Below, in pieces: positions 5,648 through 64,000 of a stretch of DNA of 64,000 nucleotides (its first letter is position 1; every line of letters starts with the position of its first letter). The translations under genes and the position numbers were made by a program. The notes beneath the pieces were generated by a model. That model was not told the DNA's origin and did not search any database. It worked only from the letters and a program-made list of their open reading frames with translations. This DNA comes from a virus, in the IMG/VR virus record IMGVR_UViG_3300045988_170943, positions 352,001-416,000 of that record, one strand, 5' to 3'.

Positions 5648-5688
5648 CGGGCGGGCGGTAACAGGAACAAACAAGGTAAGGGGCACAA

Positions 5689-8193: not shown

Positions 8194-8206
8194 AGAGTCA
8201 CGCCTT

Positions 8207-20758: not shown

Positions 20759-20860
20759 CAGAAACTACCCAAGTATATCCGCGCACACCCCGGAAGTCAA
20801 GGGATATTCCACCGCAGACACCTCACCTACCACACCAAGACGGAAGAGGCAACACAACCA

Positions 20861-21955: not shown

Positions 21956-22191
21956 GTTATTTGTGGTGGTCTAGAGCTTTGCCTGAGGTAGTGCCTGTCG
22001 GCTTGTGGGGCGTGTTCTATAGGCTGGCGGGCGCCTTCCTTTCGCCTTGAGTGTGTAGGGTGCGTCTTCTGGGGTGTAGGTGCGCGCGGCTGCCATCAAG
22101 GGTCGCGGGGTGTCTGTGATTCTGGCCAGGGGTTGGGGTGTTTGTGTGTCTGGTGGCGGTTTTCCTTCCCCTTTGCTTGTGTTGCTCCTTG

Positions 22192-22220
22192 TTGACTTTG
22201 TGGTGGTTTGATGGTAGTGT
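22192..22220 (+). promoter_or_regulatory. sigma70-like promoter (TTGACT-17-TAGTGT)
   Basis: Located in the GT-rich intergenic region upstream of the Cas4-like gene. Confidence 0.35.
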
Positions 22221-22287
22221 GTTGGGCGGTTTAGTGTAGTGTGCGCCCTGTCTTGGCGTGCTGGCTTGGAGGTTTGTGGTGTCTGAG

Positions 22288-25089: not shown

Positions 25090-26619
25090 CTAGGTTGGAG
25101 ATCCTCTAGAATCTAGGGTTTCCCTCACCATCATCAGCGTCGCCTCGGTTTTTCTTTCCGAGGTACCAGTGTGTCCCTGGATTCCACTCAGGGCAGTGAC
25201 CGGTTTCGACTGTCGCGTAACAGTCGAACTTCGCTCTAGCGCCCTCTGGCGAAGCAGAGAACGCATTCTATCACGGTTTCTCGTGCTTGAGATAGCACGC
25301 AAGGCAATCTCTCTAGATGCCGAGATGTCACGATCCAGTGAGAAACCACAGGTAGTGCAGGTACCGACCCTACTCTTCGAGTTGTTCGATACCTTACCAC
25401 CGCAGCGAGAGCAGGTCTTTGAGGTGTTCTTGGCGCTCACCTTGGTTACTTTAATCCCGTAGCGCTTAGCAGTTTTCTCTATCCTGTGCTGTATCTCAGC
25501 ATGAGGCCACCTACCACCCAAAGCGTCAAGCCAGGACAGGTTCTCCAGAGACAGATGAGCATCGCTCTTATTAGCGATTTCCACTACCTGGCTGGCGATA
25601 CACTGACTGATCTCATGCTTTATCCTGGTAGCCTTAGCACCGACTCGCTTCGCCTCAGTCCTGAGAATCTGAGCACGCTGGGCTCGGTTGTATCTCTCAC
25701 AGAGGTCCGCTCGTTCGTACAGATGAGCAGATAAATCACGACGTTTCTTCTCTGCCCTAACTAGAGAACCGAGCCACCTCTTGTAACTAACGTAATACGG
25801 AGCAGACCTGTACTTAGCCTCAGGATCTATGACGGTAGTGACGAACGGCTCTACCTTACCCAGGTCAACGCCTACAATCTTGTTGGTGTCTCGCTGATGC
25901 ACCTTGCGCTCGATAGCGATGTCAAAGACAACCTGGCCCTTGTCGTTCAGTCTGATAGTTGGGCGACATACCTTACCATCACCAAAGCGTGACTCATTAT
26001 CTGGAAGTCTGAAGTAGAGTCTAGTAAGACCGTTACTTGGCGTCTTGACCTGAACGATGACACTCAACGGATCGCTGTCGTCTCGAACTGCCTTAGGTGC
26101 GAAGTAGGTGTCACACACAGCCAGGTTCAGTTTGGCGTTCACTCCAGGTAGAGACGCCTTCCTCTCGCCTTTGACGTGATAGCGCCTCAGGTGAGCGCGG
26201 ATCATTCCACTGGTCGGCTGCGGAGCATCAGGATAAGCGACCTTGTAGCAGGAGAGGATCTTTTCTGGCTTGGTCTCCTTAGGGTGAGTGTTCATTACCT
26301 GAAACAGGCCAACTGAGACAGCATAAGACTCTAGAGCGCCAACTATATTGGTGATCAGCATCTCATTCATGTTGTGCTTCTGAAACTCAAAGTCGTAACG
26401 ACTAAGGCGTTTACGACCCCAGGAGTTCAGAGAACCGGTCGGCCTGCCACCCCGTAGAACTTTCACTGCCAGGTCATGAAACTCTGAACCGGCAAGCACC
26501 TCCTGCTCAGCCTGAGCCATCCAAGCAACCATCTGAGCCAGATCAGCACTCACTGAGTCAGCGTCAACTCCATCGTCAGTGGTGAACCTGTGCCTAGTCA
26601 CAGCGTCATAGTACTTCAC
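25090..26619 (-). CDS. tnpB: TnpB (IS605 OrfB family) second, divergent copy
   Basis: VGVDLG (RuvC-I) and SKTCSRCGG...CTTCGFSLDRDISASREIALRA (RuvC-III plus zinc finger). Confidence 0.8.
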   Translation of the reverse strand: MKYYDAVTRHRFTTDDGVDADSVSADLAQMVAWMAQAEQEVLAGSEFHDLAVKVLRGGRPTGSLNSWGRKRLSRYDFEFQKHNMNEMLITNIVGALESYAVSVGLFQVMNTHPKETKPEKILSCYKVAYPDAPQPTSGMIRAHLRRYHVKGERKASLPGVNAKLNLAVCDTYFAPKAVRDDSDPLSVIVQVKTPSNGLTRLYFRLPDNESRFGDGKVCRPTIRLNDKGQVVFDIAIERKVHQRDTNKIVGVDLGKVEPFVTTVIDPEAKYRSAPYYVSYKRWLGSLVRAEKKRRDLSAHLYERADLCERYNRAQRAQILRTEAKRVGAKATRIKHEISQCIASQVVEIANKSDAHLSLENLSWLDALGGRWPHAEIQHRIEKTAKRYGIKVTKVSAKNTSKTCSRCGGKVSNNSKSRVGTCTTCGFSLDRDISASREIALRAISSTRNRDRMRSLLRQRALERSSTVTRQSKPVTALSGIQGHTGTSERKTEATLMMVRETLDSRGSPT

Positions 26620-44523: not shown

Positions 44524-47385
44524 CTATGCGATAGTGATCTTGTCCTTACCCAGTAGACCCTTGAAGTATACGAGGTCGGCGGCGTGCCTCATACCCTCCT
44601 CCACAGTGCACCTCCCCTGCTCTACAGCATTAACGATCTGCCGCTCAATAGTCAGGTCATTGTCGCGCATATAGTCCTCAATGCCGTGGTCGTCGCCCGC
44701 GCCGATCATTTCCTGTACTTCACGAGTAATCTCAAGGACAGAGAACAGGGCGAACCGGCTCTTACCGTCAACAGTCTTCAAGAGTTCCTGGTTAGCGAGC
44801 CCACGAATGTTTGTCTGAAGCGTTGACAGTATACGCCTCTGATCCTCACCATCATACAGCGACTTGATACGGTTCAACGTGACGGCAGGCGTGTTTGAGT
44901 GGATCGTCGTCATCGTGAGGTGCCCTGACTCGGCTGCACGAAGAAACTCGTCAACCTCTTCCTGGTCTCGAACCTCACCCACCAGAATCGTGTCCGGGTC
45001 CTCACGCATAGCAGCCTTCAGCGCGTTCGAGAACGAGTGTGTGTCACTGCCCACCTCACGTGGAGTCAGCAAAGTAATGCCATCGTCAGGGTAGATGTAC
45101 TCGATGGGCTTCTCAATAGTGACGATCCTCTGGTTACTGTTCTTCTGAAGGTTACGGATCAGAGATGCGAACGTTGTCGTGTTATGGGTTGGCACATAGT
45201 CCCTTGTGCACAGGAACAGGTGTGACGGGGAGTCCACCTCAAGGCACCAGAACTCCGACTGGGAGGCGTGCACCTCCTCCATGTACTCGATCTCAACAAT
45301 GTTCCCCCCGTCTATTGTGGCGCTTGCGTGCGAGCCTCTAAAGTCATCGTTCAGGTAATCCCGCACACCAGTAATGCTCAAACGGTCACCCATAGTCTCA
45401 GTGGCGTGCATCCCCAGTGAGCGAGCCACACGAGCCACACCCTCCCTGTGCTCATCATCCGGGATGCTGACTGTCGTGTCGCTGGAGTCTGCTGGCCCCT
45501 GAACCAGTAGTGCCCCCAACAGCATCAGCCGATCCGACACGCTCCAGGAGACCGCCTCAGCAAGAACCTCACGTACCCCATCCTGCCCCTCTGTAAGGCC
45601 CGTGACAGCGGCCGCAAGCGCCACTGGCAACACGGTAGGGGCGGGGGGCTCAGGTACCTCCACAGGCCCCCTGAGTCCCCTGATAACGGGGTTGTAGCCG
45701 AACCTCTGGCACACCTCGAACATTTGCTGCGTCGTCACCGTGCGCGGCCCCTCAACGCGGCCCATCAGTGATTCCTGGGAGTGCAACTCCAGCAGGTGGG
45801 CGCACGACTTACCGACCAGGATCCCGTCACCAGTGTCACGGAACGTCCGAGAAAGAACACCAGCCACCATGTCTGCCATGTCGCCCGTGAGCCCAGCCCG
45901 GCGGGTGATCTCGTGGGCAGGCAGCCGTTCACCGTCTCTGGCAGCAACAACCATGTCCAGGAGGGCAGCAACAGACCTCTTCGGCAGGATGATACGGCAG
46001 TAATTGTCACAAGGGAACTCCGCGACCCACAGGTGGTTCCCCCCAGCCAGGACAGTCTCACTAAGGCCACGGAACTTGATGTGGAAGAACCTCTCCGACC
46101 CTCCGGGGTGCTTTCTCACCACTTTGCATGTGCTGCCGTTCTCGTCATACACGATGTCACCGACCTGCACGTCCCCAAGCCTGATGAACCCGCCAGGATA
46201 GTTCGGGCCAGGTATCAACGTGTCCTCGTGAAGATCCTTACCGGAGCCAGTAATACCCCCCAGGATGATGCCGCCCTTACCGAACTTCGTCCACTCAATC
46301 AGGCGCGGGTCCACGTTCAGTTCCTCAGGAGACGGGATGACATCACTGATGATACGGAACGTCATAGCATTGTGCCCAAGAGTGCGCGCAACATTCAACC
46401 TGGTGCGCCTCCCCGCGTGCATACTGGAACGCAACTCATAAGAGGTGTCCAGTTCCCAGTGCTCATGATAGTCAGTCTGGTTATCCTTGGTGACAATGTC
46501 CATGAAGATACGGCTCGTGACATCATAGGGGATAGGCCCGAACTTCTCGTCGCGCACAATGTCTCCATTGACCCTGTACGCGATACGCTTGTCTGGGTCG
46601 ATATGGACGTCAGAAGCACCCATGTCGATACCTTGTGCGATTACGGCGTCGATGTCGAAGCCTTTAAACGGATCCTCTTCCGCCTCCTCCTCTTCAATGC
46701 CGATCCCGTCTATGACGTCAAGAACCCCATCCAATGGGTCATCGTCATAATCGTCGTCATAGTCCTCATCATCGTACCCGGCGTAAGGGTCCTCATACTC
46801 TGGATACTCATCATCCATAGGGGAGAACGGGTCCTCATCCTCCCCGTCAACACTCCCCTCACTGGTGTCGCCCGCGTCCATGTTGTCACTGTCAGCAGCA
46901 ATGTCTGCACTGACGGCAACATAGTCTGCGTCACCATAGAGATCACCGTCACCACTACTTGCAGACAGGCCGCTAGCAGCCCCCAGGGCCTCAGGAGCAC
47001 TACCTGCACTGTACTCAGAAACACCAAAATCTGTGACCGGTTCATCACCGTCAGCACCCAAACTAGCGTTCACAGGATCATCATAGTCGCCGTCGAGCAC
47101 GCCATCATACTCAACACCTTCGTCGCTATCGCCCCACAGGCGCTCACTGTACCCATTATCTGGAACCTGGGTGGGCGCGTTCATATAGTCGGCGTCAACA
47201 GGTGTCGTTACCACGTCATCCTCGCCCGGCTCATCATAGCCGCCAGGAATAGTAGTCTCCTCCATGTGCGGCTGCGTGACCGGGGCGGCATGACCGGGCA
47301 CATACTCATCATCCCCGTCACCCTGAAGGAACGGGTTGTAGTCCTCATCCCAGGCCTCAGCAGTAAGGTCAATACGGTCAGACAT
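44524..47385 (-). CDS. PilT/PilU-like secretion ATPase with acidic N-terminal extension, interrupted in its P-loop by a class 3 intein
   Basis: Exteins carry ASDVHIDP...RVNGDI (PilT N-terminus), GGITGSGK joined to TTTFASLI (Walker A restored), RIVTIEKPIEY, EDPDTILVGEVRD and AAESGHLTMTTIHSN. An Asp/Glu-rich N-terminal region of about 250 aa precedes these. Confidence 0.7.
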   Translation of the reverse strand: MSDRIDLTAEAWDEDYNPFLQGDGDDEYVPGHAAPVTQPHMEETTIPGGYDEPGEDDVVTTPVDADYMNAPTQVPDNGYSERLWGDSDEGVEYDGVLDGDYDDPVNASLGADGDEPVTDFGVSEYSAGSAPEALGAASGLSASSGDGDLYGDADYVAVSADIAADSDNMDAGDTSEGSVDGEDEDPFSPMDDEYPEYEDPYAGYDDEDYDDDYDDDPLDGVLDVIDGIGIEEEEAEEDPFKGFDIDAVIAQGIDMGASDVHIDPDKRIAYRVNGDIVRDEKFGPIPYDVTSRIFMDIVTKDNQTDYHEHWELDTSYELRSSMHAGRRTRLNVARTLGHNAMTFRIISDVIPSPEELNVDPRLIEWTKFGKGGIILGGITGSGKDLHEDTLIPGPNYPGGFIRLGDVQVGDIVYDENGSTCKVVRKHPGGSERFFHIKFRGLSETVLAGGNHLWVAEFPCDNYCRIILPKRSVAALLDMVVAARDGERLPAHEITRRAGLTGDMADMVAGVLSRTFRDTGDGILVGKSCAHLLELHSQESLMGRVEGPRTVTTQQMFEVCQRFGYNPVIRGLRGPVEVPEPPAPTVLPVALAAAVTGLTEGQDGVREVLAEAVSWSVSDRLMLLGALLVQGPADSSDTTVSIPDDEHREGVARVARSLGMHATETMGDRLSITGVRDYLNDDFRGSHASATIDGGNIVEIEYMEEVHASQSEFWCLEVDSPSHLFLCTRDYVPTHNTTTFASLIRNLQKNSNQRIVTIEKPIEYIYPDDGITLLTPREVGSDTHSFSNALKAAMREDPDTILVGEVRDQEEVDEFLRAAESGHLTMTTIHSNTPAVTLNRIKSLYDGEDQRRILSTLQTNIRGLANQELLKTVDGKSRFALFSVLEITREVQEMIGAGDDHGIEDYMRDNDLTIERQIVNAVEQGRCTVEEGMRHAADLVYFKGLLGKDKITIA
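45181..46236 (-). other. class 3 intein (352 aa, WCT signature, Asp at position 1, large central insert)
   Basis: Block A DLHEDTLI (GAT codon verified on the reverse complement); block B GGNHLW (Trp at B12); block F EFWCLEVDSPSHLFLC (Cys at F4); block G YVPTHN with +1 Thr (Thr at G5). A central ~200 aa may be a degenerate endonuclease. Confidence 0.65.
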
Positions 47386-47658: not shown

Positions 47659-50070
47659 CTACACGGCGACCTGAGTCAGTTCCAAAGGCTTACCATCCAT
47701 ACCCATAATGCGCTCAACCTTCACCGCATCCCTGAGGAAGGCCGCCCCCGACTTGAAGAACCCCCTGTCCCGAGGATTAGGTTCACGCTTCGCCCGGTTC
47801 TCAAACTCTACAGCCACAGACTCCACACACTCACTGATGAACCTGCCCAAAGAGTCAGACACCACCAGGTAGCGGACCTCCCCATACGCGAACCACCCCG
47901 ACCAGGCATAGTTTCTGAGCACCTTCTTCAACGCGCTACCCTGTTTACGAGTCAACTCGATCTCATATGCGATAGACCTAGCCCGACCATTCTTGTCCCG
48001 CACATCATAACGCATAATAAGGTCTGGCTGATGGTACGACGAGTACTTATCCTTCTCATCATCCTTCGCGCACGGTACCCACAGCATCGGATACTTCTCC
48101 ATGATGCCGTCACGTAACCCACTCGACAAGTCCTGGTATGCGTCAAGCATCTGCTCACGATACCTCACCAGACGTTCATCTCTCGACAAGGTGACACCAG
48201 AGCAGTTGCGCTCCATCCACCGCTCATTCACAAAGAACGCGGGCATAAACCCATGCAACTTACACTCGCGGGCAACAGTGTACGAAACCATAGCATTATG
48301 TGCGCCACGCTCAGTCATACGCGCACCCTTACGGGCACTACGCACCTTAATGTTGTCAAAATCCACGCCAGACCTGTTATCCCGGAGCACCTGAAGACCC
48401 TTGCTCTTCAACCGGTAAATACTCTTACCACCAAGGAACACGGTATCACTGATAATCAGGCCCATCTCCGCCAAACCAAGAAGACGCTTCGGCGCAGACT
48501 TCGGAGCCTTCAAACCCAGAATCGTCTGCACACTCCTAGCAGTAGCGGAACCAGACACAGCAATCAGTTCCAGCACCAACAAATCCTTCTGAGTGATCTT
48601 TGACCGATGATACTTCTTTCTCGGATTCCGCTTCTTCCTACCTGAGACAGTCTCGCCACGACGCTGCCTGTGCCGCAGATCCGCCTCCTGAGCCTTACTA
48701 CGCACAGGGAACTTCACATCAGGAGCGAACTCCTGCCGCATGTACTCGCCAGTGTCAGAAGGAAGCGGCTGCAACCCCTGACCAGGCTTCTTCGGCGGAG
48801 GACGGTACCCCTTCATAAACGGCTTATTCTCAGGATTCAGGATATGCGGGTCAGTGACACCAACCAGATTCGGGTCAACTGGTTTCTTAGGTCGAGGCCG
48901 CTTAGGCTTCTGATACTGAACCACATACTTGCGATCCTCCAACACGTTCACATCATCAGTACCCAGACCAGCAGGCTCAGGACGCGACTCGCCACCACTG
49001 AGAGACAAGCCCCCGCCAGTAGACACACCGCCGGATCGCCCCCCGTCGTTTACTCCACTACGAGATTGCGCACCATTAGCATCTCCTCGACCACTACTGT
49101 CACGACGGAACCCACCCGAACCAAGACCAGCACCCACAGTGAGACCAGCAGTTACAGCAGGTTCCTGTGGGCTTCCCTGAACGCCACCACGACCATCACC
49201 CGCGCCACTGCCCGCAGCGCGCACACGACCCGAACCTTGCACCTCACCATCAGGAGAAACGGGCCGCCTATCAGACGTTGAGCGGCCACCCGAGGCTACA
49301 CTACCAGTGGGACGACGGCCTTCCCCCAACTGCGGGCGACCACCGCCCTGAACCCCACCTACTGGCCTCTCATGATGTATAGCAGGCCTCGAAGCGCCTT
49401 CGCCCCCACCCGAGGTGCCCACGCCAGCACCATTACCAGCAGTCCCATGAGGAGCAGTGCGACGCTCAGGGTAAGAGTGACGAGAACTTCCCCCGTCCCC
49501 TACAACACCACCCTGAGCCCTCACGGGGCGGGCACCGCCAGCAGGAGATGCAGGGCGAGAGCCACCTCCCATGCCAGAGGTAACACCCTGCCTGACAACA
49601 GGTCCACCACCAGCCATACGACTTCCGCCACCCTGTGACTGTCGGACACCCATTGGGGCGACACCACCATGCGGTAGATCGCGGCCACGCACACTGTCAC
49701 CCTTCACCACACCACGGGCGCTGTCGTTACCCCCAGGGTTGGACCTACCAAGAGACCCCACACCCCTAGGATGACCGCCTCCCCCACGCGACGGCACCAC
49801 ACCAACACCAGCCCCAGTAGGTCGCCCAGCGCCTCTTGCGTCACCCTGTGGCCGGGTGGGGGAAGCCTCGTCGTCACTGAGCAGGTCACTCATCATGTCA
49901 TCGAGAAGATCATGCTCCACCTCAGCAGGCACGCCAACAGTACTACGTGCCGGGCCGCCATTAGTGCCAGAGACAGTCGGGCGCATGGGGCGGCTCACCC
50001 GGCTACGGTCACGGAAACTATTACGTGCGCCATCACGGCCAGGCTCATCAGTCACAAGCACACCCTCCAA
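47659..50070 (-). CDS. DNA-binding protein with ~430-aa Gly/Arg/Pro/Ser-rich disordered N-terminus and a C-terminal wHTH plus replication-relaxation-like domain
   Basis: C-terminal ~370 aa are well-composed (LLVLELIAVSGSATARSVQTIL...). The N-terminal low-complexity part could be over-called. Confidence 0.35.
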   Translation of the reverse strand: MEGVLVTDEPGRDGARNSFRDRSRVSRPMRPTVSGTNGGPARSTVGVPAEVEHDLLDDMMSDLLSDDEASPTRPQGDARGAGRPTGAGVGVVPSRGGGGHPRGVGSLGRSNPGGNDSARGVVKGDSVRGRDLPHGGVAPMGVRQSQGGGSRMAGGGPVVRQGVTSGMGGGSRPASPAGGARPVRAQGGVVGDGGSSRHSYPERRTAPHGTAGNGAGVGTSGGGEGASRPAIHHERPVGGVQGGGRPQLGEGRRPTGSVASGGRSTSDRRPVSPDGEVQGSGRVRAAGSGAGDGRGGVQGSPQEPAVTAGLTVGAGLGSGGFRRDSSGRGDANGAQSRSGVNDGGRSGGVSTGGGLSLSGGESRPEPAGLGTDDVNVLEDRKYVVQYQKPKRPRPKKPVDPNLVGVTDPHILNPENKPFMKGYRPPPKKPGQGLQPLPSDTGEYMRQEFAPDVKFPVRSKAQEADLRHRQRRGETVSGRKKRNPRKKYHRSKITQKDLLVLELIAVSGSATARSVQTILGLKAPKSAPKRLLGLAEMGLIISDTVFLGGKSIYRLKSKGLQVLRDNRSGVDFDNIKVRSARKGARMTERGAHNAMVSYTVARECKLHGFMPAFFVNERWMERNCSGVTLSRDERLVRYREQMLDAYQDLSSGLRDGIMEKYPMLWVPCAKDDEKDKYSSYHQPDLIMRYDVRDKNGRARSIAYEIELTRKQGSALKKVLRNYAWSGWFAYGEVRYLVVSDSLGRFISECVESVAVEFENRAKREPNPRDRGFFKSGAAFLRDAVKVERIMGMDGKPLELTQVAV

Positions 50071-50361: not shown

Positions 50362-50784
50362 ATGTGTAGCACAGACAACTACGACCTCATGATCCTCAAG
50401 ATGTCCCAGTACTTCATGCGTCGAGCACGTGGCAAGTCCTACCGGGTGCCAGACGAACTGAGCCTGATTTGCATGAAGGAAGACAACCCTGAAGAATGGG
50501 GCGACCTGATCCACGACCTCATCAACGAGGCACACCCATTCACTGACGAAGACGGAACATGGACCACCACCCACATGGGTAAGGAGGTCACCCACACCAT
50601 CGGCTCCGACGAGGTTATGGCTGCCGCACGCTACGCACGAACCATGCTGGAGATGGCAAACCGGGGAGACTACGCCCTCCTCCACCTCACGTCCGACACC
50701 TTGAGCAAGGCGCTGGACGACCTGTACAAGAAAGGCCGCCAGGACGCCCGCACAGCCCTAGCAGCAGAACAGGGACTCATCTAA
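50362..50784 (+). CDS. hypothetical protein
   Basis: Start placed at MCSTDNYD. Normal composition. Confidence 0.35.
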   Translation: MCSTDNYDLMILKMSQYFMRRARGKSYRVPDELSLICMKEDNPEEWGDLIHDLINEAHPFTDEDGTWTTTHMGKEVTHTIGSDEVMAAARYARTMLEMANRGDYALLHLTSDTLSKALDDLYKKGRQDARTALAAEQGLI

Positions 50785-50973: not shown

Positions 50974-51381
50974 CTAGAGTGGAAAAGACTCAGAAATCCT
51001 CATCCAGGTACATGTTTCCAAGTACATGTGACCCACCCCGTCATTGAAGTGCTTCACCCTGAGCATACGAGACTCACAAGACGGGACGCGGATCAGCACC
51101 TCACCATACACTACACCAGCAGGGTCGGGGTTAAACAGGAGTGTGTCACACAAGATCCCCTCCAGACGATCAGGGAGACTCCCGCTATAGTCCGCAAAGG
51201 AGAAGCGGACAGCAACCACCCCGTCGTCAACCTCCACAATACAGAGGTTCGTCCCATTCGGGTTAACCTCATTCACCCGCCCCACAAGCCACTCAGCACG
51301 CTTCACAGCCTCACTCTCAGGTAACCCAGACACGTACCCATCAACCGACACTGGACGGTCAATCAACTCAACACTTCCCAT
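50974..51381 (-). CDS. hypothetical protein
   Basis: Start placed at MGSVELIDRP (cat at 51379-51381). Normal codon usage. Confidence 0.4.
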   Translation of the reverse strand: MGSVELIDRPVSVDGYVSGLPESEAVKRAEWLVGRVNEVNPNGTNLCIVEVDDGVVAVRFSFADYSGSLPDRLEGILCDTLLFNPDPAGVVYGEVLIRVPSCESRMLRVKHFNDGVGHMYLETCTWMRISESFPL

Positions 51382-51399
51382 AACAGTGTCTCCCTTCCA

Positions 51400-52660
51400 G
51401 ACGGAACCCAGTCCGTCCCAGGCAATCTCTTGCTTCGCTGGCAGTCCACTCGATCTACAGCACACCACCACCCACCAATATACAGGACAATACACCCAGA
51501 ACACAACCACCCCAGACCATGCCATACCACCCCTGGCAAACCCGACCGCCAGTGGCACACAAACAGCCCCAGGAAGACGCCCTCTGAGCAAGGCCACCCC
51601 ATGCACTCACACCAACCCGAGCACAAACCAGGCGGCAGGAGCCACGAGAAAAACCAGGCTCACCTACAAGCCCCGCACGCACAACACCAAACATGCCCAC
51701 CACCCAGAGTGGGAACATGCGCCTAACCCCCTGACGCCACCTCCCCGTGTTCCCATGCCCCTGTAAGAGTGAACCAGACAAACGTTACCGCTACTATCAT
51801 TGTTTACGACTAATCCGCACCCCCAAGAAACAAGCCACGCCCACACCAATTGAAACACCATGCTCACCCCATAGTTTCACGCTTGCCGCAACCAACCGGA
51901 ACACCATCAGCACAGAAAAGCGGCAGAGACGAAAACGGACGCAAGCCACAACAGCCACCGACCAGGAAAGGGGTCTAAACCCCTGTGCCGCAACACCCCA
52001 TATACACACCACCCAGCACCATTCCCCCAAACAGAGTAAACAGGGGTAAGAACACGACCCAGGATCGCAAGAAGCCGCATCCGGTAACCCAATCACGGTC
52101 ACGGCCCCACCCTATAGAGATCGACACCGAACCCGCCTCATGAGAATCACCCCCCTTGCGGCCACCTCAAAACAAACACAGGCCACGCACACGAACCCCA
52201 CTCAACACGACAATACACCACCATACGCCATCACAAGAACATCAGGCAATAGTCCCGCACATGAACGCCCACCCCAAAGGCGACACAAATAACCAACCAG
52301 CACGCATGACAAGAACACTTGACACCCAGCCAGGAAGACATCACATACATCCAAACAAGCCCGCAAACACACAAGACGAAGCAGCACCAAGACACAACAC
52401 GCAGACATGCGCAAAGACAAGCACACTTTACACACCTACCACATACCTGCACACCTCTCAAAAGGCATAGTCACCCAGGCAGCACACCGCCCCGCACAAA
52501 CAATAGACACACACCCAGAAACAGGCACACAACAAACCCCAAGACCAACCCCCAAAACACCCATACACCCAGAACGCACAACCAAAAACCACAAAACCGC
52601 GCCATTCCAACGAAAAGTCCCAATAACATGTGAAGAAGGGGTTTCCTATACGGGTACCAA
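51400..52660. repeat. low-complexity C/A-rich (on + strand) arm of a skewed ORF-poor region
   Basis: The + strand is almost devoid of G and T (cacaccaaccc... style) for about 1.26 kb. All frames are open because stop codons are depleted. Confidence 0.7.
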
Positions 52661-53085
52661 ACCCCAAAATTTCCGCCAAGCAAAACCCACCCACTTGGTG
52701 TCTCGCGCTGCTGTCGCTGTTGTGGTGCTCGTCTCTGTCGTGTTTGTTGGTGGGTTTGTGCTTGCCTGCACGGGCGTTCGCTGGGGCTCTCTGTGCAGGG
52801 TGGGGGTTGGTCTTGGGGTTGGGTGTGGTGGTGTGCGCTTACTGTCGTGATGAAGAGGCAGTGAGCGTGAGTGTGCGCATACTGTTTGGCTGTGTGGTGG
52901 ATGGGTGTGCGCACATAGTGTCTGGGCGACTACTGCGCAACAGGGGGCCAAACAGCCACAGGGGGTAAGGGGTTCAAGACAAAGGAGGAGGACGTAACCG
53001 TGCGCGTGGGGGTTGGGGGACTATTAACCCCTGACGGGTGCATAGGCGTGTGGCGGTACCTGGAGTGGTCACCTGCTACCTACCG

Positions 53086-53368
53086 GCTGCGTTCACTGCG
53101 TTCACTTCGCCTGGTTCCGGCATCGTGTTGGTTTGGGTTGTGGGTGGAGTCCTGGGTTGGGTTGTGGTTCTTGTGAGCAGTGTGTGGACAGTGTGGTGGC
53201 AGGTGTGCGCACATGGTGGCGGCATGGGGTGTGCGTGTGGGGTGGAGTGAAGCGTCAGCGGAGCGGAACCCCCTCCTGGGGTGAGAGAGTGTGCGTGTGC
53301 GGCACCCATAGGGGTGGTGGGGGGTTTGGTGAGCAAAGGCGGGGCAGAGTGAACGCAGTGAACGCAGC
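53086..53368. repeat. inverted-repeat pair (gctgcgttcactgcgttcact ... agtgaacgcagtgaacgcagc) flanking ~240 bp
   Basis: Exact ~21-nt reverse-complementary copies at 53086-53106 and 53348-53368. The motif family gtgaRgcgtcagcgRa recurs at 53253, 53528, 53583 and 53775. Confidence 0.6.
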
Positions 53369-54600
53369 CCCCTTCTTGGGGTGCTGGTGGATTCTTTGGG
53401 AGGGAGTGTGGGCCCGGACTGGTACCCAAGGCAGAGGGGAGCCCTGGCGGGGCGGCCCCTTGGTGTGCGGTCAGGGTGTCAACAGGGGGGGCATGCGTGG
53501 GTGTGCGCACGGTAGCCTCATGGGGGCGTGTGAGCGTCAGCGAGCGCGCGGCCTGGGGTCGGGTGGAGCGGGACCGGAGGGTGTAGTGAAGCGTCAGCGG
53601 AGCGGAGCCCGTAGTGTTCCGTGGGGGAGGCCCTGGTGTTGTTATCGGTTGGGGACAGACCTGTTGGCATGTGATCCCTGGGCGGGGTCTCCTGGTGGGC
53701 CCGGGGTGTGGGTGCCTTGCCTAGGGGTGCAGGGTGGTGTGGTAAGGGATGCAGAGTTGAGCATGGGGTGGGTTGAGTGAGCGTCAGCGAACGAAACCCC
53801 TAAGGTGAGTGTGGTAGCGTGGGGTGGGTGGAGGCCTGTGGGGCTGGTAGGTGAGCACGTGGGGTGAAGTGAATGGAGTATTCGGGTAGCGAGGAGAGCC
53901 TGGGTGTGTTGGGTGGCTGGGTGTCAGTGGGGTTGGGGGGCGACCTTCTGTAGGCATGGGTATAGGGTGTGGGTGTCTGGTGGTGTTGTCTGTGGGGGTG
54001 AGTGGTTGAGGTTGGGTTGGGTCTTTGGGGTGTTGGTGGTGTGAGGGTGGCTGGTGTTGGGGGTTGTGTGTGGGGTGGGACTGGTTGGGGGTGTATTTTT
54101 TTGTTTGGGGTGTGGGGTGTGGGTTTCACTGGGGCGCTTGGGGTGGGGTGTTATTTGTGTGTGATGTCCGCCTGGGGTTTGGGTGGGGAGGTTGTTGAAG
54201 CGTATTTGGGTGCGGCCTGTTTTGGTGGTGGTGAGGTAGGTGCCTTGGTTGATGCTGTTGATTCGTTTGCTGGTGAGGGGTTTGGGTGGTTGTGGCAGGC
54301 GTGTTTTGGGTGAAGTGGGTCATAGTGGGGTGGTCTGGGGTTTTGGTGGTGCCAGTATTGGGGGTGGGACGGCAATAGTGGGGTGTGGGGTTCTTGCTGC
54401 GTGTGTTGTGTTCTTGCTGGGGCGGGTGGTGTGGTTCTGGCCGCGAGTGCTGTGGTTGTCTGTGTTCGCATGTCTTGGGGTGTCGTGTGGCATGGTTCAC
54501 TCGTCTGGGGGTTGTGTTGGTGTGGTGGTCTGGGTTAGGGTTGGGTCAACAGGCCGGGAGGCAGAGGGCCCCTGGCATGAACCCGAGAAAGGGGATTAGG

Positions 54601-54954
54601 ATGTTTGATCTGCACGCTGCTGAGGCTCAGGTTCGTGAGGCTGCTGAGGCTGTTCGTACGATTGTTGGTATGCCTGTCACACAGGTGGATGTCCATCAGG
54701 TACTTCAGGTGGAGGAGAATGTTGCCACTCAGGTGGTGATTACTGGGCGGTACACGAAGGATGTTTTTGTTAGCGGCGCTGTCTTTGGGTACGGGAACCC
54801 GGTTCTGGTGGGGCGGCAGGTTGACCGGGTTGAGGAGTCGTCGGTTTTTGCGGGTGGTGCCTTTTACTGGTCTGTGAAGGCTTTTGATGCTCAGGGGGAT
54901 CTTGTTTTTGAGATTTCTGGTGAGGGTGTTGACTGGGAGGTGCGTTCTCGCTGA
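54601..54954 (+). CDS. hypothetical protein (T-ending codon usage)
   Basis: 118 aa from MFDLHAAEAQ. Well-composed protein inside the GT-rich arm. Confidence 0.4.
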   Translation: MFDLHAAEAQVREAAEAVRTIVGMPVTQVDVHQVLQVEENVATQVVITGRYTKDVFVSGAVFGYGNPVLVGRQVDRVEESSVFAGGAFYWSVKAFDAQGDLVFEISGEGVDWEVRSR

Positions 54955-55264
54955 GTCTCTGGGTTTTGGTTGGGGCCTACTGGGGTGTTGGATCCTGGTG
55001 GGTCCCAGTCTTTGTTGTCTGTTGGGGTGCTTGCTTGTTGTGTGGTGTTGGGCTGTCTGGTTAATTTGGGTGGGGTGTGTGTTGCTGTGCTCCTTCGGTC
55101 TGGTGCTGTGTTGGGTTATGGTGCGGCCTGGGATCTGGGGCTGTGCTCGTGGAGGTGTGTGGTGTACTTCATGTTTTTGGTGGTGTTGTGGTAGGTGGCT
55201 GGTGGTGTAGTGTTGAGCCGGTGCCGGGCCAGTCGGGCCGGGCAATGAACCTTGGGAGGGCTCT

Positions 55265-55720
55265 GTGATGTGTGTGTCTGATGATGTGGCTGTTGGGGTT
55301 GCGTCTGGTGTGGTTGGGGGTGTGCCTTCTGGGGGTGTGGTTTTTGATCCTGCTGACGTTGGTGGGGGTAACACGGCTGTGAGGGGCGCCTATTCTGTTG
55401 TTCGTCGTTGGCTGCCCTGGTATGCCAGTGTCAGTGGCCGGTGGGGTGGTGATTGGTGTGTTCTTCGTTCTGACGTGGGGAAGGATGAGGGGGTGGACAA
55501 CTCTGCTTCTGTTACTGTTGCCAGCCGGTGGGATGGTCGGGTGTTTCACTGGGATGTTGTTGCTGTGCACCGTGGTTGTGAGGCTTGTTGTTCTGGGTCG
55601 GGTGACTGGCATGCTATGCGGGTTGCTGTCTTTGGCACGGTGAACAGGGCGGTGGTGGCCTACTTGTCGTCACCCTTGGATTTTGATTGTGATGAGTGTC
55701 GGGAGGCTGGCTGGGTGTGA
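55265..55720 (+). CDS. hypothetical protein (GT-rich codons)
   Basis: 151-aa ORF with a diverse amino-acid composition, but an artefact of stop depletion cannot be excluded. Confidence 0.25.
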   Translation: MMCVSDDVAVGVASGVVGGVPSGGVVFDPADVGGGNTAVRGAYSVVRRWLPWYASVSGRWGGDWCVLRSDVGKDEGVDNSASVTVASRWDGRVFHWDVVAVHRGCEACCSGSGDWHAMRVAVFGTVNRAVVAYLSSPLDFDCDECREAGWV

Positions 55721-56883
55721 CCGGCCAGGGGGTGGTCTCTTGTGGTGGCGGGGCTGCCTCTAGCCTGCTTGTTGGTTGGGTGTGTTGGGTGCTTCCAGGT
55801 TGGGTGGGGTGGTCTTGGTGTGCTGTGTTAGGGTTGTGAGGTGGGGTTGGTTGGGGTAGATGGTAGGGACGCCATATGGTGGGGTGGTTGGGTGGTTTCA
55901 TGCTGGTGTGCGGCCTTGGGGTTTGAGTGCCTTGTTGCTTGCTGTGGGTTTCCCCTGTCCTCTGGGTCTTGTTGGGGTGCGGCCTCTGTGTGTGGGTGGT
56001 TTTCCTGGGGCTGGTGGCGGGTTGGGTCTGATGCCTGTTGGTCGGGCTGGTTGAGTTGCGTGTCTGTGTCGTGGGGTGGTTTCCTATGGCGTTGGCTGTC
56101 TGGCTTTGCCTGCCCGGTTGGAGGTCTCCTTGTGGGGCGTCTCCTTGGAGTGGTGGCGGGTTGTTCCTTGTTGGCCTCAGGTGGTGTGTGTGAAGGTGGG
56201 TGTCACTCAGGTTGTGTGAAGGCGCGAAGATGTGCCACCCAGGGTGCGGGTATTGGGGTCCGCACCCTGGGTGGTTTTGTTTGCCTGTGCTTTTCTTCTT
56301 TGGCCTGTCCGTCTGGTGCGTGCTGGGGCTTCCTGGGCTTGCTGGGTGCCTGAGTGTGGGACCCTTGTCTGGGCTCGTGGTGGATAGTGGGGACACCAGG
56401 ATAGGGGTTGGGTGGCGATTTCGTGGAGGGTGTGGTAGCCCGTGTCTTGTTTCTGGTGCATGTTAATGATGTCGTTCACTTGGGCCGCAAGAACTTGGTG
56501 TCGTCTTCTTGTGGTCTTGGCTGTTGTGGGTGGGGGTGAGGGCTTCGCTGTCTTCTTTGTTGCGTGGGGTGTCCTCGGAGAGGGGGCTGGTGATCTGGAC
56601 TAGGGGTGGGTGCGGCCTCGATGGCGTGGGTGGTAGTTGGCGGCCGGGTCGGAGAGGGTGGCGCAGCCTGAGATTCTGTGGCGGGTCAGGTTCTCGTTCT
56701 GGTTTGTTGGGTGGGGTACTGTTGCTCTGGGTTCAGGAGGTCGCGCATGTCCTGGTTGGTGGATTGGATGCGGTAGGCGGCGCCTGGGTGGTGGCCATGG
56801 TTGCTCACCCCTCTTTTGTGGGTCTGGGTGATGTGGGGCTTGTTTGTCTTGTGGCCTGGCGGCGGTGTTGGGGTCTGGTGGGG

Positions 56884-57240
56884 TTAGAACAGGGTGACGG
56901 ATAGGGTGTCATAGCCTTCGCCCATGATCGTGAGAGGGCGGTCACGGATGTCGTCTCCGCGGATCCAGATCTCCCACAGGGTGTCCGTGCCTGCCTCGGA
57001 CTCGTACCAGCAGCAGTTGGGTTCGCCAATGGTGAGCCCTTCCAGGTTGGTGGTGGTCTTGAAGACTACACCCTCGATCAGCAAGCGGCGTCCTGGGGTG
57101 GTGTCGATGACGATGTTGTTCCACCCGTCAGGGCGTGTCTCCCATGTGGCGGTCTCGATGGTCTGGCCCTTGACCTCTTTGAGGATCTGGGTGGCGGCCA
57201 GTACCTTGTCGTGGCCTTGGTGGCTGTTGGTGCTGAGCAT
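56884..57240 (-). CDS. hypothetical protein
   Basis: 118 aa on the minus strand. Local composition is normal, unlike the flanks. Confidence 0.4.
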   Translation of the reverse strand: MLSTNSHQGHDKVLAATQILKEVKGQTIETATWETRPDGWNNIVIDTTPGRRLLIEGVVFKTTTNLEGLTIGEPNCCWYESEAGTDTLWEIWIRGDDIRDRPLTIMGEGYDTLSVTLF

Positions 57241-58531
57241 GGCTGCCTCCCTACAGGTTGACGGGTCTGGTTCTGTCTTGTAGTGGCTCGCGCCCTGTCG
57301 GCGGAGCCCTTATCTGTGGTTACAGCATAGGCGTGTGCTGGGTGTGTCCGCAACCCTTGGGCGTGTGAACTGGGGCACAGTCAGTGCGGGTGTGCTTGTG
57401 GTCTGTTGGGGCTTCTTGGGGTTTGTTCTGTTCTGCTGGGGTGGATCCATGGGTGTGGGTGCTCGGTTGGGAGTGCTTGGGCACTGGGGTGGGTGCGTGG
57501 TTGGTTCGGCCCGACTTTCTGTCTTGTGGTCGTTGGTCGCCTGCCTGAACTGCTGCCCGTGGAGGGGTGTGCTGCTGGTGCGGTGGTCTGGGGTTGCGTG
57601 TACGGGATGCGGAGGGGTGGGGTGCCTGTTGTGTGCGAAACCTGGGTGAGGCTGGGACTTTTCGTTGTTATTCCAGTGGTAAAGTCCGTGCAGGCAAGGT
57701 CGTGTACTCTCGTTCGTTCCTGTTGTCGGGGTCGCCTTGTCTGCTCCTCCCTGAATCTGTCCCGCTGAGTGTCTGGTGGTGTCCCTTGTTTGGGGCTTGT
57801 TTTGTTGTGGTAGTAGGGGAAGGTGGCTGTGGGTGGGCTGGTCGTCCAGGTGGATGGGCCCGTGCAGGCAAGGGGGTTTTGAACGTACACCATATGAAAA
57901 AGAGATCTTGTATTACCAGGGAACGCTGCACGGGGTACCCGCCATTGTCACCTGACAGTTCCTCATCGTTTGTGTCCGCTGACTTGTGGGGGCGGGGCGT
58001 GTTGCTGGTTGAGGGTGTGATCGGGTTGGTGGTCTGTTTGGGTGTGGCTGCGACTGGTGGAGGGGTGACGCTGGGTGGGTTGCCTCAGCCTGCTGCTGGG
58101 GGTGGGGGTGGCGGAGAACCCTCTGGAAGAGCGTGTAAGCCACGCTGAGGCGTTTTTGGGGATGTACTGGTACCCTGGATAGGGTGCGGTGGCTCTAGGC
58201 CGTTAGGGGCGCTGTGACGACTCCTTGGGTGCTTGTCGCTCACATGTCCTGCCTTGCCCTTTACTTTCCGGCTGGGCTGGAGGTACGTATGGGGGTGTGG
58301 GGCTTAGGTTGTCCAGTGAATGGGTGGGGAGGGGTGGTAGAGGTAGGGCCGTGCTTGCTTTGGCCGGGTGTTTGTTTATGTGGGTGTTCTTCTGGGTGGG
58401 CATATTGTGTTAGGGGTGAATGGATTCTGTCACCCTGTCCACGGTTTGTCCTCGTTTCAGGGTTGACGGCCGGGGAGTGAGGGTGTTAAGGTTGTGAGAA
58501 TTCCTGATTTGGATGAGAGTGAGAGCAAGGT

Positions 58532-59320
58532 ATGAGTGAGCGACTTGGTGGGGAGCCATCGGATCTGTTGGGGGAGTCTGGTGTGCCTGTTTCAGTGCCC
58601 CGTCCTGAATCGGCAGCCATAGTGGATGCTGTGCCTGCTGGTGGTTCCGCTGTTGCGGGTTCTTTTGTGTCTCGTGTGGCTCCGCTTCGGGAGGATGGGG
58701 AGGTTCTGCCTCTGCCGACGGTTGAGGGTGGTTTCAGGACGGTGCTGGCTGATCCGCCGTGGCGTTTCCGGAACCGTACTGGGAAGGTGGCCCCTGAGCA
58801 CCGTCGTCTGGACAGGTACTCCACCATGACGTTGGAGGACATCAAGGGTATCCCTGTGGATGGTGTGACTGCTGAAAATGCGCACTGCTATCTGTGGGTG
58901 CCGAACGCTCTGCTTCCTGAGGGGCTGGAGGTTTTGCGGGCCTGGGGGTTCCGGTACGTGTCGAACCTGGTGTGGGCGAAGCGGCGTAAGGATGGTGGTC
59001 CGGATGGTCGTGGGGTGGGGTTCTACTTCAGGAACGTCACTGAACTGATTCTTTTCGGGGTCAAGGGGTCTATGAGGACGCTATCTCCGGCCCGTAGTCA
59101 GGTGAACATGATCGAGACCCGAAAGAGGGAGCACTCGCGTAAGCCGGATGAGCAGTACCCGTTGATTGAGGCGTGTTCTCCGGGACCCTATCTGGAGATG
59201 TTTGCCCGCTATGGTCGCCCTGGCTGGGTGGCGTGGGGGGATGAGTCCGCGGATGATGTCACCCCCAGGGGTGGTGTGCACAGGGGGTACGCGGGTGGGG
59301 AGATCGTTCCCAGAGTGTGA
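58532..59320 (+). CDS. MT-A70-family N6-adenine DNA methyltransferase
   Basis: DPPW catalytic motif (VLADPPWRF) and an MT-A70-like core (CYLWVPNALL, RYVSNLVWAK). Confidence 0.7.
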   Translation: MSERLGGEPSDLLGESGVPVSVPRPESAAIVDAVPAGGSAVAGSFVSRVAPLREDGEVLPLPTVEGGFRTVLADPPWRFRNRTGKVAPEHRRLDRYSTMTLEDIKGIPVDGVTAENAHCYLWVPNALLPEGLEVLRAWGFRYVSNLVWAKRRKDGGPDGRGVGFYFRNVTELILFGVKGSMRTLSPARSQVNMIETRKREHSRKPDEQYPLIEACSPGPYLEMFARYGRPGWVAWGDESADDVTPRGGVHRGYAGGEIVPRV

Positions 59321-61828: not shown

Positions 61829-62248
61829 TCAAGGTCGCTTTACAATGCTGGTGCTCATGGCGGCTGCCAGCGCCTCCAGTACCTTGGTGGTGTCGTAATC
61901 GCCTAGTTCCAGGTGGGCGACAACCTCAGCAATGGTGTACATGGGGGACAGGTGCACGCCGACACCGCCCCAGTTCTGGTCGTTGGTGATTTCGACGACC
62001 ACTCCTCCGGGGGTGTAGATGAGAAGGGACCTGCCCTCATGGTCCCATGCGAAGATCTGTGCCGTGTCGTCAGGTGAACTGATCGTGCGGGCTACGGCGG
62101 GCAGGCTGTCACCGGCCATCTCTTCGTCGTTGAGCAAACGGCAGATCTGACTCTCAAGGGCCTCCAGGGTGTCGATGTCTGCTCCTAGGCGGGCGTTGGA
62201 CACCTCGGGGCTGATGGATAGTGCTTCCCACTGGATCCTCTGGCTCAT
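61829..62248 (-). CDS. hypothetical protein
   Basis: Start placed at MSQRIQWE (cat at 62246-62248). The upstream extension is low-complexity. Confidence 0.35.
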   Translation of the reverse strand: MSQRIQWEALSISPEVSNARLGADIDTLEALESQICRLLNDEEMAGDSLPAVARTISSPDDTAQIFAWDHEGRSLLIYTPGGVVVEITNDQNWGGVGVHLSPMYTIAEVVAHLELGDYDTTKVLEALAAAMSTSIVKRP

Positions 62249-62712
62249 GATGACACCTTCCTTGTCTTGTTTGCGGCTTGGTTTCTCTAAGGAGTATTCA
62301 ACCATGCTTGTTGCTGTGTCGCCACTCAAGAACGTGTGATGTGAGTCCCTTATCCCCTTATTGGGCTTGCACCAGGGGCGGCAGGCTGGTTCAAGGCGGG
62401 CCTGTGCGTTGGCGTGGTTGGTTTTCTCATCCATCTGAGCACCCTGTCCTGTTCTTGTGTTTCTAGTACTGGTGCAATGGTGTCCCCAGTGATTGAGGTG
62501 CTTTCGTCTGCCGCACTGGGTGAGGGGTGCCTCTGGGGGTGTTAGTGTGAGGCAAGGCTGGGGCGTGGTCTTGGTGGTGCGGTCCGCCATGGTTCTCCTG
62601 TTGCGTCAGGTGCTTTTCTCGTGTATCATGTCGGTAGTGGTGTGTCCGCCTGTGCCTGTGGCGGGGCGGTTAAGAATGACCCACACCTGAACTCTATGAA
62701 GGAGAAGAATGC

Positions 62713-63478: not shown

Positions 63479-64000
63479 GTGGGTTGGGTTCGGGTGAAGA
63501 AGGCTGCTGAGATTCTTCGGATGTCTCCAGAGACGGTTCGTCAGTGGTCTAATACTGGGAAGATTGAGTGTCAGAGGTCGGCTGCGGGTCAGCGTGTCTT
63601 TGATGAGGACTACCTGAGGTCTCTGGTTGATCCTGATTCGGAGGTGTCCTCGCCGCAGTGCGTTTTCTATGTTCGTTCATCCAGTGGTCAGGACACTCCT
63701 ATGGAGACTCAGAGGAAGGCTCTGGAGGCGGCATATGGTAAGCCGGTGAAGGTTTTCAGTGACAAGGCGTCAGGGCTGAACGAGCGGCGTAGAGGTCTTA
63801 CTTCCCTGCTGAACTGGGTGAATGAGCATCATGGTACGACTGTCTGTGTGACGGCTAAGGATCGTCTGACACGGTTTGGTTTCACGTATCTGGAGATGCT
63901 TATTCAGGACCGTGGTGGTAAGGTGGTTGTTCTGGATGATGAGGCATTCAAGGAGCCTCATGAGGCTTTGATGGGTGACTTTATGGCTCTGCTTGCGTCT
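63479..64000 (+). CDS. tnpA: IS607-family serine recombinase TnpA (MerR-like HTH plus resolvase catalytic domain), partial; runs off window
   Basis: GTG start. N-terminal HTH (VKKAAEILRMSPETVRQWSNTGKIECQR) then resolvase motifs (VFYVRSSSGQDT with catalytic Ser, ...DRLTRF). No stop codon before 64000. Confidence 0.6.
   Translation, partial: MGWVRVKKAAEILRMSPETVRQWSNTGKIECQRSAAGQRVFDEDYLRSLVDPDSEVSSPQCVFYVRSSSGQDTPMETQRKALEAAYGKPVKVFSDKASGLNERRRGLTSLLNWVNEHHGTTVCVTAKDRLTRFGFTYLEMLIQDRGGKVVVLDDEAFKEPHEALMGDFMALLAS

Follow-up and report, generated by a model that had tools for sequence, protein, structure and literature searches.

The locus described here lies in a stretch of 64,000 nucleotides (positions 352,001 to 416,000 of IMG/VR virus record IMGVR_UViG_3300045988_170943; hereafter the window) that belongs to a ~400-kb phage-like element from human oral samples. 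Between roughly 51.4 and 58.5 kb of the window, the + strand switches from C/A-rich to G/T-rich DNA, with the switch embedded in a conserved non-coding core (52,540–52,830) and very few genes on either side. The window (56% G+C) matches oral metagenome contigs at 99.99–100% identity, the largest of which (418,686 bp; ENA ERZ27262911 k119_16908) carries it at about 280.8–344.8 kb, and the relatives are classed as viral contigs in IMG/VR. No relative was found among 185,579 species genomes searched for a host, none of which has the transfer-messenger RNA (tmRNA) tag ANSDNFALAA either, and a limited literature search gave no account of this element or of a comparably extreme local skew.

Strand skew and the conserved core

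Keto skew was calculated as (G+T−A−C)/N on the + strand in 500-bp windows, for ~86 kb of the ~400-kb genome. It amounts to −0.43 to −0.50 at 51.5–52.5 kb and +0.34 to +0.68 throughout 53.0–58.5 kb, with a purine skew near zero across the same windows, and the highest absolute value in any 500-bp window is 0.70, whereas 200 permutations of the window never exceeded 0.20. The cumulative keto walk reaches its window-wide minimum at 52,694, and in two related lineages (L014 and L016) the switch likewise coincides with the cumulative minimum. The extreme mirror-image keto/amino asymmetry that a first-pass annotation had placed at ~52.67 kb is thereby confirmed. The transition itself is sharp: the skew goes from −0.84 (52,520–52,569) to +0.64 (52,720–52,769) over a balanced stretch of ~100 bp (52,620–52,719). 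The non-coding pieces of the right arm contain only 6–7% A and 15–18% C, and the left arm 10% T and 16% G. The skewed domain extends beyond the 51.4–58.48 kb that had been annotated: skew is indeed present there, but it continues through genes, leftward to ~47 kb (weakly to ~31 kb) and rightward to ~64 kb. At third codon positions and in non-coding DNA, it amounts to 0.4–0.7 within ~5 kb of the switch and 0.1–0.3 at 8–12 kb. On the right side it is ~0 by 10–12 kb and then varies between −0.15 and +0.13 out to +22 kb; on the left side a weak tail of −0.1 to −0.2 extends as far as ~31 kb, and the skew is flat at 0–15 kb of the window.

CpG is depleted in the skewed arms (observed/expected 0.50–0.62 at 52,000–58,000, versus 0.72–0.96 elsewhere in the window) and GpC is not, which may hint at a context-dependent loss of C. 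Tandem or dispersed repeats were considered as a source of the composition, but only short motifs were found and the arms consist of complex sequence. G-quadruplexes, which the G-rich strand had been expected to favour, were ruled out as the defining feature, since there are few motifs (seven) and all of them lie on the + strand of the right arm, with zero in the left arm.

The set of relatives comprises eleven loci, the L016 lineage, the L014 lineage (a distant relative, in which the ortholog of the neighbouring 803-aa protein discussed below is 63–77% identical) and 14 further metagenome contigs that were retrieved with a 19-mer from the switch. Mirror skew is found without exception in the related contigs, which number more than 20, the region is retained by all relatives, and at least 15 independent assemblies read through the switch; the possibility that the region is a recent junk insertion, which its absence from relatives would have indicated, is thus not borne out. 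Within the core, a stretch of roughly 52,590–52,810 does not differ among the six sequences of the window's own lineage that were aligned (L016 included). The 19-mer in question, GGGGTTTCCTATACGGGTA (52,638–52,656, + strand), is unique in the window even when 3 mismatches are allowed and is identical in L014, where it is followed by AAAATTTCC-CCAAGCAAAAC; all 14 contigs that it retrieved (14/14) show the mirror skew. The hairpin that GGGGTTTCCTATACGGGTA could form was rejected as a feature, as it is not conserved in L014 and its fold z-scores are unremarkable. The core is bracketed by a 27-nt inverted repeat (52,528–52,554 and 52,801–52,827), which is absent from L014 and therefore probably not essential. 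The arms are otherwise not reverse complements of each other, this one 27-nt repeat being all that was found, so that the earlier statement that the locus is no hairpin-telomere junction stands.

Immediately to the right of the core, several short motifs are repeated. Four exact copies of the 9-mer GGTGTGCGC (+ strand; 52,830, 52,904, 53,202 and 53,500, together spanning 52,830–53,508) occur within 700 bp, versus ~0.1 or fewer expected from the local composition, and a copy with one mismatch lies at 52,870. Several copies are followed by TAnnGT, and four direct copies plus one inverted copy are found at the same place in L014, which makes these repeats candidate protein-binding sites or promoter elements. 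Compared with an iteron-type origin, the repeats are unevenly spaced and lie 2.6 kb from the candidate initiator gene. A 32-nt block containing ATTAACCCCTGACGGGTG (53,014–53,045, + strand) is 100% identical in L014, in which the motif has two copies. In addition, tandem half-site repeats of the form GTGARCG-N2-3-GCGARCG (+ strand) are present at 53,240–53,271, 53,530–53,546, 53,579–53,610 and 53,777–53,793, and also in L014, in both orientations. The 12-mer CGTGCAGGCAAG occurs three times in the window, versus ~0.45 expected, and all three copies fall within the locus: one near the core (52,761–52,772, inverted) and two (57,687–57,698 and 57,861–57,872, direct) in the conserved non-coding block at 57.2–58.5 kb.

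A segment of ~230 bp (53,112–53,342), which includes one of the GGTGTGCGC elements, is enclosed by 27-nt inverted repeats (53,085–53,111 and 53,343–53,369) made up of tandem GTGAACGCA units. In one relative (L002) this segment is reverse-complemented between flanks of unchanged orientation, and it could be a phase-variable switch, although no invertase was recognised. Many independent contigs, among which contigs of 248 kb and 363 kb, end 0.3–1.5 kb to the right of the switch (within 52.9–54.2 kb); these ends are scattered beside the repeats and the invertible segment and do not fall at a single point (L007, L008, L011, L015, L022–L035). Such breaks are most simply explained by heterogeneity arising from the invertible segment.

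Coding content and the direction of the genes

The coding density of 51,382–58,531 is about 17% (i.e. ~83% is non-coding) and only three real genes are found there. Among relatives at 89–100% identity, the arms contain indels of 1, 2, 4, 7, 11, 13 and 17 or more nt, distributed over 51.5–54.4, 55.0–55.25, 55.73–56.9 and 58.1–58.3 kb, while the stretches 54,577–54,954 (+), 55,268–55,720 (+) and 56,884–57,240 (−) are free of indels and gene-like. The biased open reading frames (ORFs) were considered as genes with unusual codon usage, but frame-breaking indels occur throughout and the translations are junk, so that the earlier judgement that most of the region is non-coding holds. Three further candidates were discarded: an ORF of 170 codons reported by gene finders (57,381–57,893, −), which has a P/T/H/Q-rich product and equal skew at all codon positions and is spurious; an ORF of 57 codons that follows a strong ribosome-binding site at 53,000, the frame of which is not conserved in relatives; and the + strand ORF overlapping 56,884–57,240, which does not behave as coding. 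Rfam gave no match in 51–59 kb, even at E = 1. A divergence-based selection test was unusable, as the divergence between strains is a mosaic. Hypervariability among relatives, for which the first-pass annotation had proposed a comparison, is restricted to the centre: 52.75–53.5 kb is the most variable part of the locus, and the rest of the region is not hypervariable.

From left to right, the locus begins with two small genes (50,362–50,784, +, and 50,974–51,381, −); gene calls for the latter are also found in relatives, and in the former the substitutions among relatives are enriched at third positions. The non-coding left arm follows (51,382–52,619; 73% C+A on the + strand), with indels of 1, 2, 7, 11, 13, 190 and 240 nt, of which the part at 51,382–51,750 is very conserved (1.4–1.7% divergence). 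Beyond the core, the first non-coding block of the right arm (52,720–54,576) consists of 73% G+T. It is followed by a real gene without family match (54,577–54,954, +) and its strong terminator (54,968–55,010), by a second real gene (55,268–55,720, +), and by a non-coding G/T-rich block (55,721–56,883; 6.6% A; indels of 1, 4, 17 and 139 nt). The latter contains, ~500 nt downstream of the nearest gene, a terminator on the + strand (56,234–56,275; an 18-bp stem followed by a T-run), which implies a putative long 3′ untranslated region or non-coding transcript. The third real gene (56,884–57,240, −) has an ortholog in L014 that is intact in frame, with 18, 10 and 30 differences at codon positions 1, 2 and 3, respectively. 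A highly conserved non-coding block (57,241–58,531; 0–2% divergence) separates it from the gene of an MT-A70 DNA methyltransferase (58,532–59,320, +; Pfam 4.7e-28), which lies inside the skewed domain. The small flanking genes have no Pfam or PHROG matches. L014 lacks 3 kb that hold both + strand genes of the right arm with their G/T-rich spacers, and the length of the arm is therefore not fixed.

Gene calls were compiled for the whole window and the keto skew at first and third codon positions (k1 and k3) was determined. The genes within the arms, which had been taken to be interruptions of normal composition, turn out to share the skew of the arm at their third positions (+0.41 to +0.68 on the + strand), with near-zero skew at second positions. 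On the + strand, the sign of the third-position skew equals that of the arm in 15/15 genes within 12 kb of the switch, even though seven of these 15 are transcribed towards the switch and hence have C/A-rich coding strands. Among the inward-pointing genes are 50,362–50,784 (+; k3 −0.36), 56,884–57,240 (−; k3 −0.41), 61,829–62,590 (−) and part of a + strand operon at 30–44 kb. The coding strands of genes that point away from the switch have k3 values of +0.43 (50,974–51,381), +0.68 (54,577–54,954), +0.67 (55,268–55,720, with a k1 of +0.58) and +0.54 (the methyltransferase gene). The mean absolute k3 is ~0.44 in genes pointing away from the switch, versus ~0.26 in those pointing towards it.

The composition of the proteins follows the strand as well. 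V/G/W/C/F make up 0.31–0.46 of the proteins of genes coded on the outward strand (46% in the product of 55,268–55,720), and only 0.12 of the product of the inward-pointing gene at 50,362–50,784; in two of the three genes nearest the switch that are coded on the opposite strand, T/P/H/Q/N/K amount to ~0.30. The skew thus belongs to the DNA strand rather than to the genes, which is well supported as a positional, strand-asymmetric mutation field. That its sign is independent of gene direction and that the protein composition follows the strand argues against codon selection and transcription-coupled mutation as the main cause, and this same independence favours those versions of strand exposure that involve DNA synthesis.

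Second focus, neighbouring 803-aa gene and other features of the element

A second, smaller mirror focus is present at 18,500–24,000, where the cumulative walk dips to a local minimum (21,219) before climbing to a local maximum (23,772). The switch lies inside an FtsK-like gene (20,861–21,955, +), flanked by 18,974–20,758 (−) on the left and 22,258–24,243 (+) on the right. In the first 60 codons of the FtsK-like gene, 17% of the third positions are G/T, whereas the figure for the last 125 codons is 97% (Fisher p = 7e-23), which means that the synonymous choice flips from C/A-ending to G/T-ending codons within a single continuous FtsK domain. In the next gene (22,258–24,243), k3 declines steadily from +0.88 to −0.29 over 2 kb. 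A promoter-like TTGACT-N17-TATACT of the leftward neighbour is located 450 bp to the left of the switch, and the second switch is therefore not situated at divergent promoters. In distant huge-phage contigs (G+C 45% and 34%), the same syntenic place shows only a weak mirror of about −0.2/+0.2. As a separate observation, the FtsK-like ORF starts (20,861–20,985) with ~40 residues ending in ...GHSIVSHN followed by S, reminiscent of an intein's C-terminal splicing motif; if so, the gene would be split and its parts united by trans-splicing. Homologues of similar length occur in other huge contigs.

To the left of the main switch, a gene encoding a protein of 803 aa is found (47,659–50,070, −), the C-terminal half of which comprises a winged helix and a putative PD-(D/E)XK domain resembling Replic_Relax/MOBC. 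Searched directly, the protein matches no family and stays below the Pfam threshold, and tblastn with it, like megablast with the region, found no similar sequence in the INPHARED phage collection. When 1.84 billion representatives were scanned in full with HMMER, 44 relatives emerged, most of them matching over residues 443–755, and PF13814 (Replic_Relax) is matched by 17 of the 35 aligned homologues. Six residues are invariant in the alignment (D496, E616, D683, E703, E705 and K709), in a PD...E-x-E-L-x-x-K pattern. A MarR-type winged helix precedes this nuclease motif according to a profile search and to fold comparison with an AlphaFold model (predicted local distance difference test, pLDDT, of 84); the fold searches retrieved the winged helix only and not the nuclease fold. 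No domain was assigned to the N-terminal ~440 aa. PF13814 has been placed in the PD-(D/E)XK superfamily, with a link to the replication and relaxation of plasmids (PMC3424549), and corresponds to the MOBC relaxase family (PMC5357655), the prototype of which, TraX, has a winged helix and binds direct repeats 70–120 bp from nic (PMC12857230). From this remote homology and from its position, the 803-aa protein is a candidate initiator or nickase for the core. For this gene, gene callers give a product of 305 aa in ERZ27262911 k119_16908 (L001/L013, 99.99% identical), which suggests a frameshift or sequencing error in that assembly.

Apart from these loci, the window encodes a Ro60/TROVE protein, a fragment of the DNA polymerase III alpha subunit, a clamp-loader subunit, NrdD, GyrA, several TnpB proteins, a Tad-like pilus set, TcpE with a VirB4-like AAA_10 ATPase, and the FtsK-like ATPase and MT-A70 methyltransferase already mentioned. 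All 13 tRNA genes and the tmRNA of the window are confined to 1–8.6 kb; this part (1–8585) also holds the Ro60/TROVE gene (605–2197) and a cytidine/dCMP-deaminase-like gene (5689–6156), and the latter is worth keeping in mind with respect to a bias of the deamination type. At 10,101–13,231, the ORF of DNA polymerase III alpha has only 498 aa (the PHP domain and the start of the polymerase core) and is directly followed by a TnpB gene on the opposite strand, the remainder of the polymerase being located outside the window. TnpB genes are found at 11,708–13,231 and 25,090–26,619, and a further one forms an IS607-like pair with a serine recombinase (63,479–64,000 of the window; 14,948–17,120 of L001). 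This pair is present in L001, L003, L004 and L008 and absent from the otherwise near-identical L002, L005, L006 and L007. Short matches to PHROG 'terminase' families were obtained for residues 204–277 of the PD-(D/E)XK nuclease encoded at 22,258–24,243 and for residues 698–743 of a 953-aa T2SSE ATPase (44,524–47,385); these may mark inserted inteins rather than homology to terminases.

Possible causes of the skew and comparison with known systems

In either direction from the core, the strand that runs 5′ to 3′ away from it is strongly depleted of C and of A, and the depletion shows in non-coding DNA, at synonymous positions and in the composition of the proteins. The accepted view is that skew at origins results from deamination of the strand that is exposed more (PMC3269016), and in vertebrate mitochondrial DNA the exposure of the displaced strand results in a mutational gradient that is linked to replication (PMC8565317, PMC3269012). 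It seems plausible, judging from the sequence, that the core is a fixed initiation site for outward DNA synthesis with a long-lived single-stranded displaced strand, a reading to which we would assign a probability of about 0.5. DNA synthesis would then initiate repeatedly at the core and proceed outward both ways, with a delay in the synthesis of the complementary strand (through a D-loop, an R-loop or nick-primed strand displacement), and the displaced strand would stay single-stranded long enough for deamination of C to U and of A to hypoxanthine to convert it to G+T. The exposed outward strand might be the lagging-strand template, the strand displaced from a nick, or the non-template strand of outward R-loops. 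Under such a scheme, the 803-aa winged-helix/PD-(D/E)XK protein would be the likely site-specific initiator, the repeats to the right of the core would be likely binding sites for it or for a partner, and the poverty in genes would result from mutation pressure as well as from the space used by control elements. A further such site, although a weaker one, would lie at 21.2 kb.

Several observations agree with this scheme. In L014, where the ortholog of the 803-aa gene sits nearer to the switch, its k3 is 0.69, versus 0.48 in the window. Changes polarised against relatives in the non-coding DNA of the right arm amount, per site, to 0.071 for C>T versus 0.024 for G>A, and to 0.076 for A>G versus 0.052 for T>C; a first attempt was noisy because of misalignment, and the second gave the expected asymmetry in the right arm only. 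When compositional equilibrium is assumed, the composition of the right arm corresponds to a rate of deamination-type transitions on the exposed strand of ~3.5 times that on its partner.

A number of points speak against it, however. Within the ~86 kb covered, there is no replichore-wide plateau of skew of the kind that a simple theta origin would leave; there is also no DnaA box (TTWTCCACA, at most 1 mismatch) in 51–64 kb, and no clear AT-rich unwinding element, the core being only mildly AT-richer than its surroundings. The gradient within the 803-aa gene is not monotonic, and the polarised spectrum of the left arm comprises too few changes and is not clearly asymmetric; moreover, such spectra are, near compositional equilibrium, not independent of composition. 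The role given to the 803-aa protein follows from transitive remote homology and from its position, and the second focus, 31 kb from the main switch, is situated in coding sequence without a recognisable conserved non-coding core. The locus does not qualify as a single origin of the textbook type, with skew across whole replichores, as both the plateau and DnaA boxes are missing and a second focus exists. The bidirectional-origin pattern that had been proposed initially is therefore supported as far as the outward polarity, the cumulative minimum, the independence of gene direction and the conserved core beside a Replic_Relax/MOBC-like gene are concerned, but not in its classical form.

Exposure of the outward strand could also have its origin in transfer or in transcription. 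If a MOBC-like protein nicked either strand at the roughly symmetric core, as at an origin of transfer (oriT) in conjugation-like export, the strand peeled off 5′ end first would be the exposed one, and the membership of homologues of the neighbouring protein in PF13814, i.e. the family of TraX with its winged helix and its binding to direct repeats (PMC12857230), the short direct and inverted repeats beside the core, the type IV secretion or Tad-like genes directly to the left (VirB4-like AAA_10, TcpE, T2SSE, T2SSF and RcpC) and a right arm that, with its methyltransferase and small genes, is similar to the leading regions of plasmids would all fit. A single nic, though, exposes the same strand on both sides and would give a jump in magnitude, not the observed change of sign; a mirror image requires nicking of both strands, which is not known for the MOBC family, the right-arm genes lie on the exposed strand and could thus not be transcribed from it, and nothing indicates conjugation in an element that IMG/VR lists as viral, which together make export unlikely. 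Divergent transcription without any replication start, in which strong outward promoters and long transcripts or R-loops would leave the non-template strand open to deamination, predicts the identical polarity as well as a decay over a few kb, as expected of a transcription unit, and agrees with the somewhat stronger skew of outward genes. The promoter-like GGTGTGCGC-N-TAnnGT repeats all point rightward just past the switch, and the strong + strand terminators of the right arm, one of them in non-coding DNA, imply rightward transcription. It is nevertheless distinctly improbable as the sole cause, since the sign of the skew never tracks gene direction (as the seven C/A-rich coding strands demonstrate), the second switch is inside a gene that is transcribed across it and 450 bp from the divergent promoter region, and a simple promoter scan gave nothing significant.

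Selection instead of mutation would require that a G/T strand is kept for a G/U-rich non-coding RNA, for G-quadruplexes, for RecA/Chi-like sequences, or to keep out stop codons or restriction sites. Some parts of the arms, for instance the block at 57,241–58,531, diverge less than the neighbouring genes, and the seven G-quadruplex motifs of the right arm could be taken as a sign of such a function; on the other hand, low divergence is patchy and resembles recent recombination between strains, unrelated genes of either orientation share the bias at their synonymous sites, with a smooth change along the DNA, and the arms have frequent indels, no RNA family match, no G-quadruplex on the left and a right arm that is 3 kb shorter in L014, which leaves selection little chance of being the explanation. 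In phi29 and adenovirus, a linear genome is copied inward from its termini by strand displacement; the joined termini of such a genome, in a circularly permuted assembly, would have the same polarity and a gradient decaying from the ends, and several contigs (including those of 248 kb and 363 kb) end 0.3–0.9 kb to the right of the switch. With at least 15 independent assemblies crossing the switch, contig ends that are scattered over 52.9–54.2 kb, no terminal inverted repeats, and a second focus inside a gene that would be left unexplained, this explanation is far-fetched.

A bolder version of initiation at the core, which we consider rather unlikely, is that synthesis initiates at several fixed zones of the element, and that editing of the displaced strand there, either spontaneous or by a single-stranded DNA deaminase of the host or the element, is so heavy that the flanking kilobases have become nearly uninhabitable for genes; the G-rich strand would stabilise R- or D-loops, which would make the process self-reinforcing, and the MOBC/Replic_Relax nuclease would be a bidirectional initiator. 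If initiation at such sites is indeed the cause of the skew, initiation sites of uncultivated giant phages and plasmids could be located from sequence alone, by a footprint far sharper than GC skew, and exposure of single-stranded DNA would locally override selection, as manifested in a codon flip within a gene, altered proteins and kilobases empty of genes. It would also tie Replic_Relax/MOBC, a poorly understood nuclease family, to a concrete and testable DNA site, and provide a natural system for strand-specific deamination in bacteria as well as a test for enzymatic editing of mobile-element DNA.

Skew values of bacterial genomes are typically at most about 0.1–0.2. Here, non-coding DNA reaches 0.5–0.7 and synonymous sites up to 0.9, the effect is local and fades within ~10 kb, there are two foci 31 kb apart, and the centre is a 6-kb gene desert without DnaA boxes. 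What is shared with bacterial, plasmid and phage origins is the G+T-rich outward 5′ to 3′ strand on both sides, the V-shaped cumulative walk and the independence of gene orientation (PMC3269016). The MOBC/Replic_Relax systems (pAD1 TraX with oriT2, CloDF13 MobC) have, as is predicted here, a winged-helix and PD-(D/E)XK protein beside a non-coding region with short direct and inverted repeats, with secretion or transfer genes adjacent (PMC12857230, PMC5357655), but the protein described here has 803 aa, stays below the Pfam threshold and is a candidate from remote homology. No mirror-image skew at oriT regions is reported in the literature examined.

In R-loop origins and zones (T4 oriF/oriG, ColE1, immunoglobulin switch regions and skewed CpG-island promoters), G-rich non-template DNA likewise extends over kilobases downstream of a start, whereas here the bias ignores the direction of transcription and T is enriched as much as G. 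Origins of T4 can lie within genes, as the second focus does. On mammalian chromosomes, skew N-domains are characterised by upward jumps at fixed initiation sites with decay in between, and the profile between 21.2 and 52.7 kb is shaped in the same way, although over kilobases instead of megabases and with a much larger amplitude. The magnitude is similar to that in vertebrate mitochondrial DNA, which also shares the C→T and A→G changes on the displaced strand, the scaling with exposure and a non-coding control region at the start (PMC8565317, PMC3269012). As in that system, the asymmetry is strongest at neutral sites (0.4–0.9 in non-coding DNA and at third positions, ~0 at second positions) and decays with distance; it differs in that the mitochondrial bias affects one strand round the whole circle, whereas here it is mirrored and short-range on a double-stranded element of ~400 kb. 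Heavily edited, self-reinforcing initiation zones, if they exist, would be to prokaryotes what the mitochondrial control region or the immunoglobulin switch regions are to eukaryotes.

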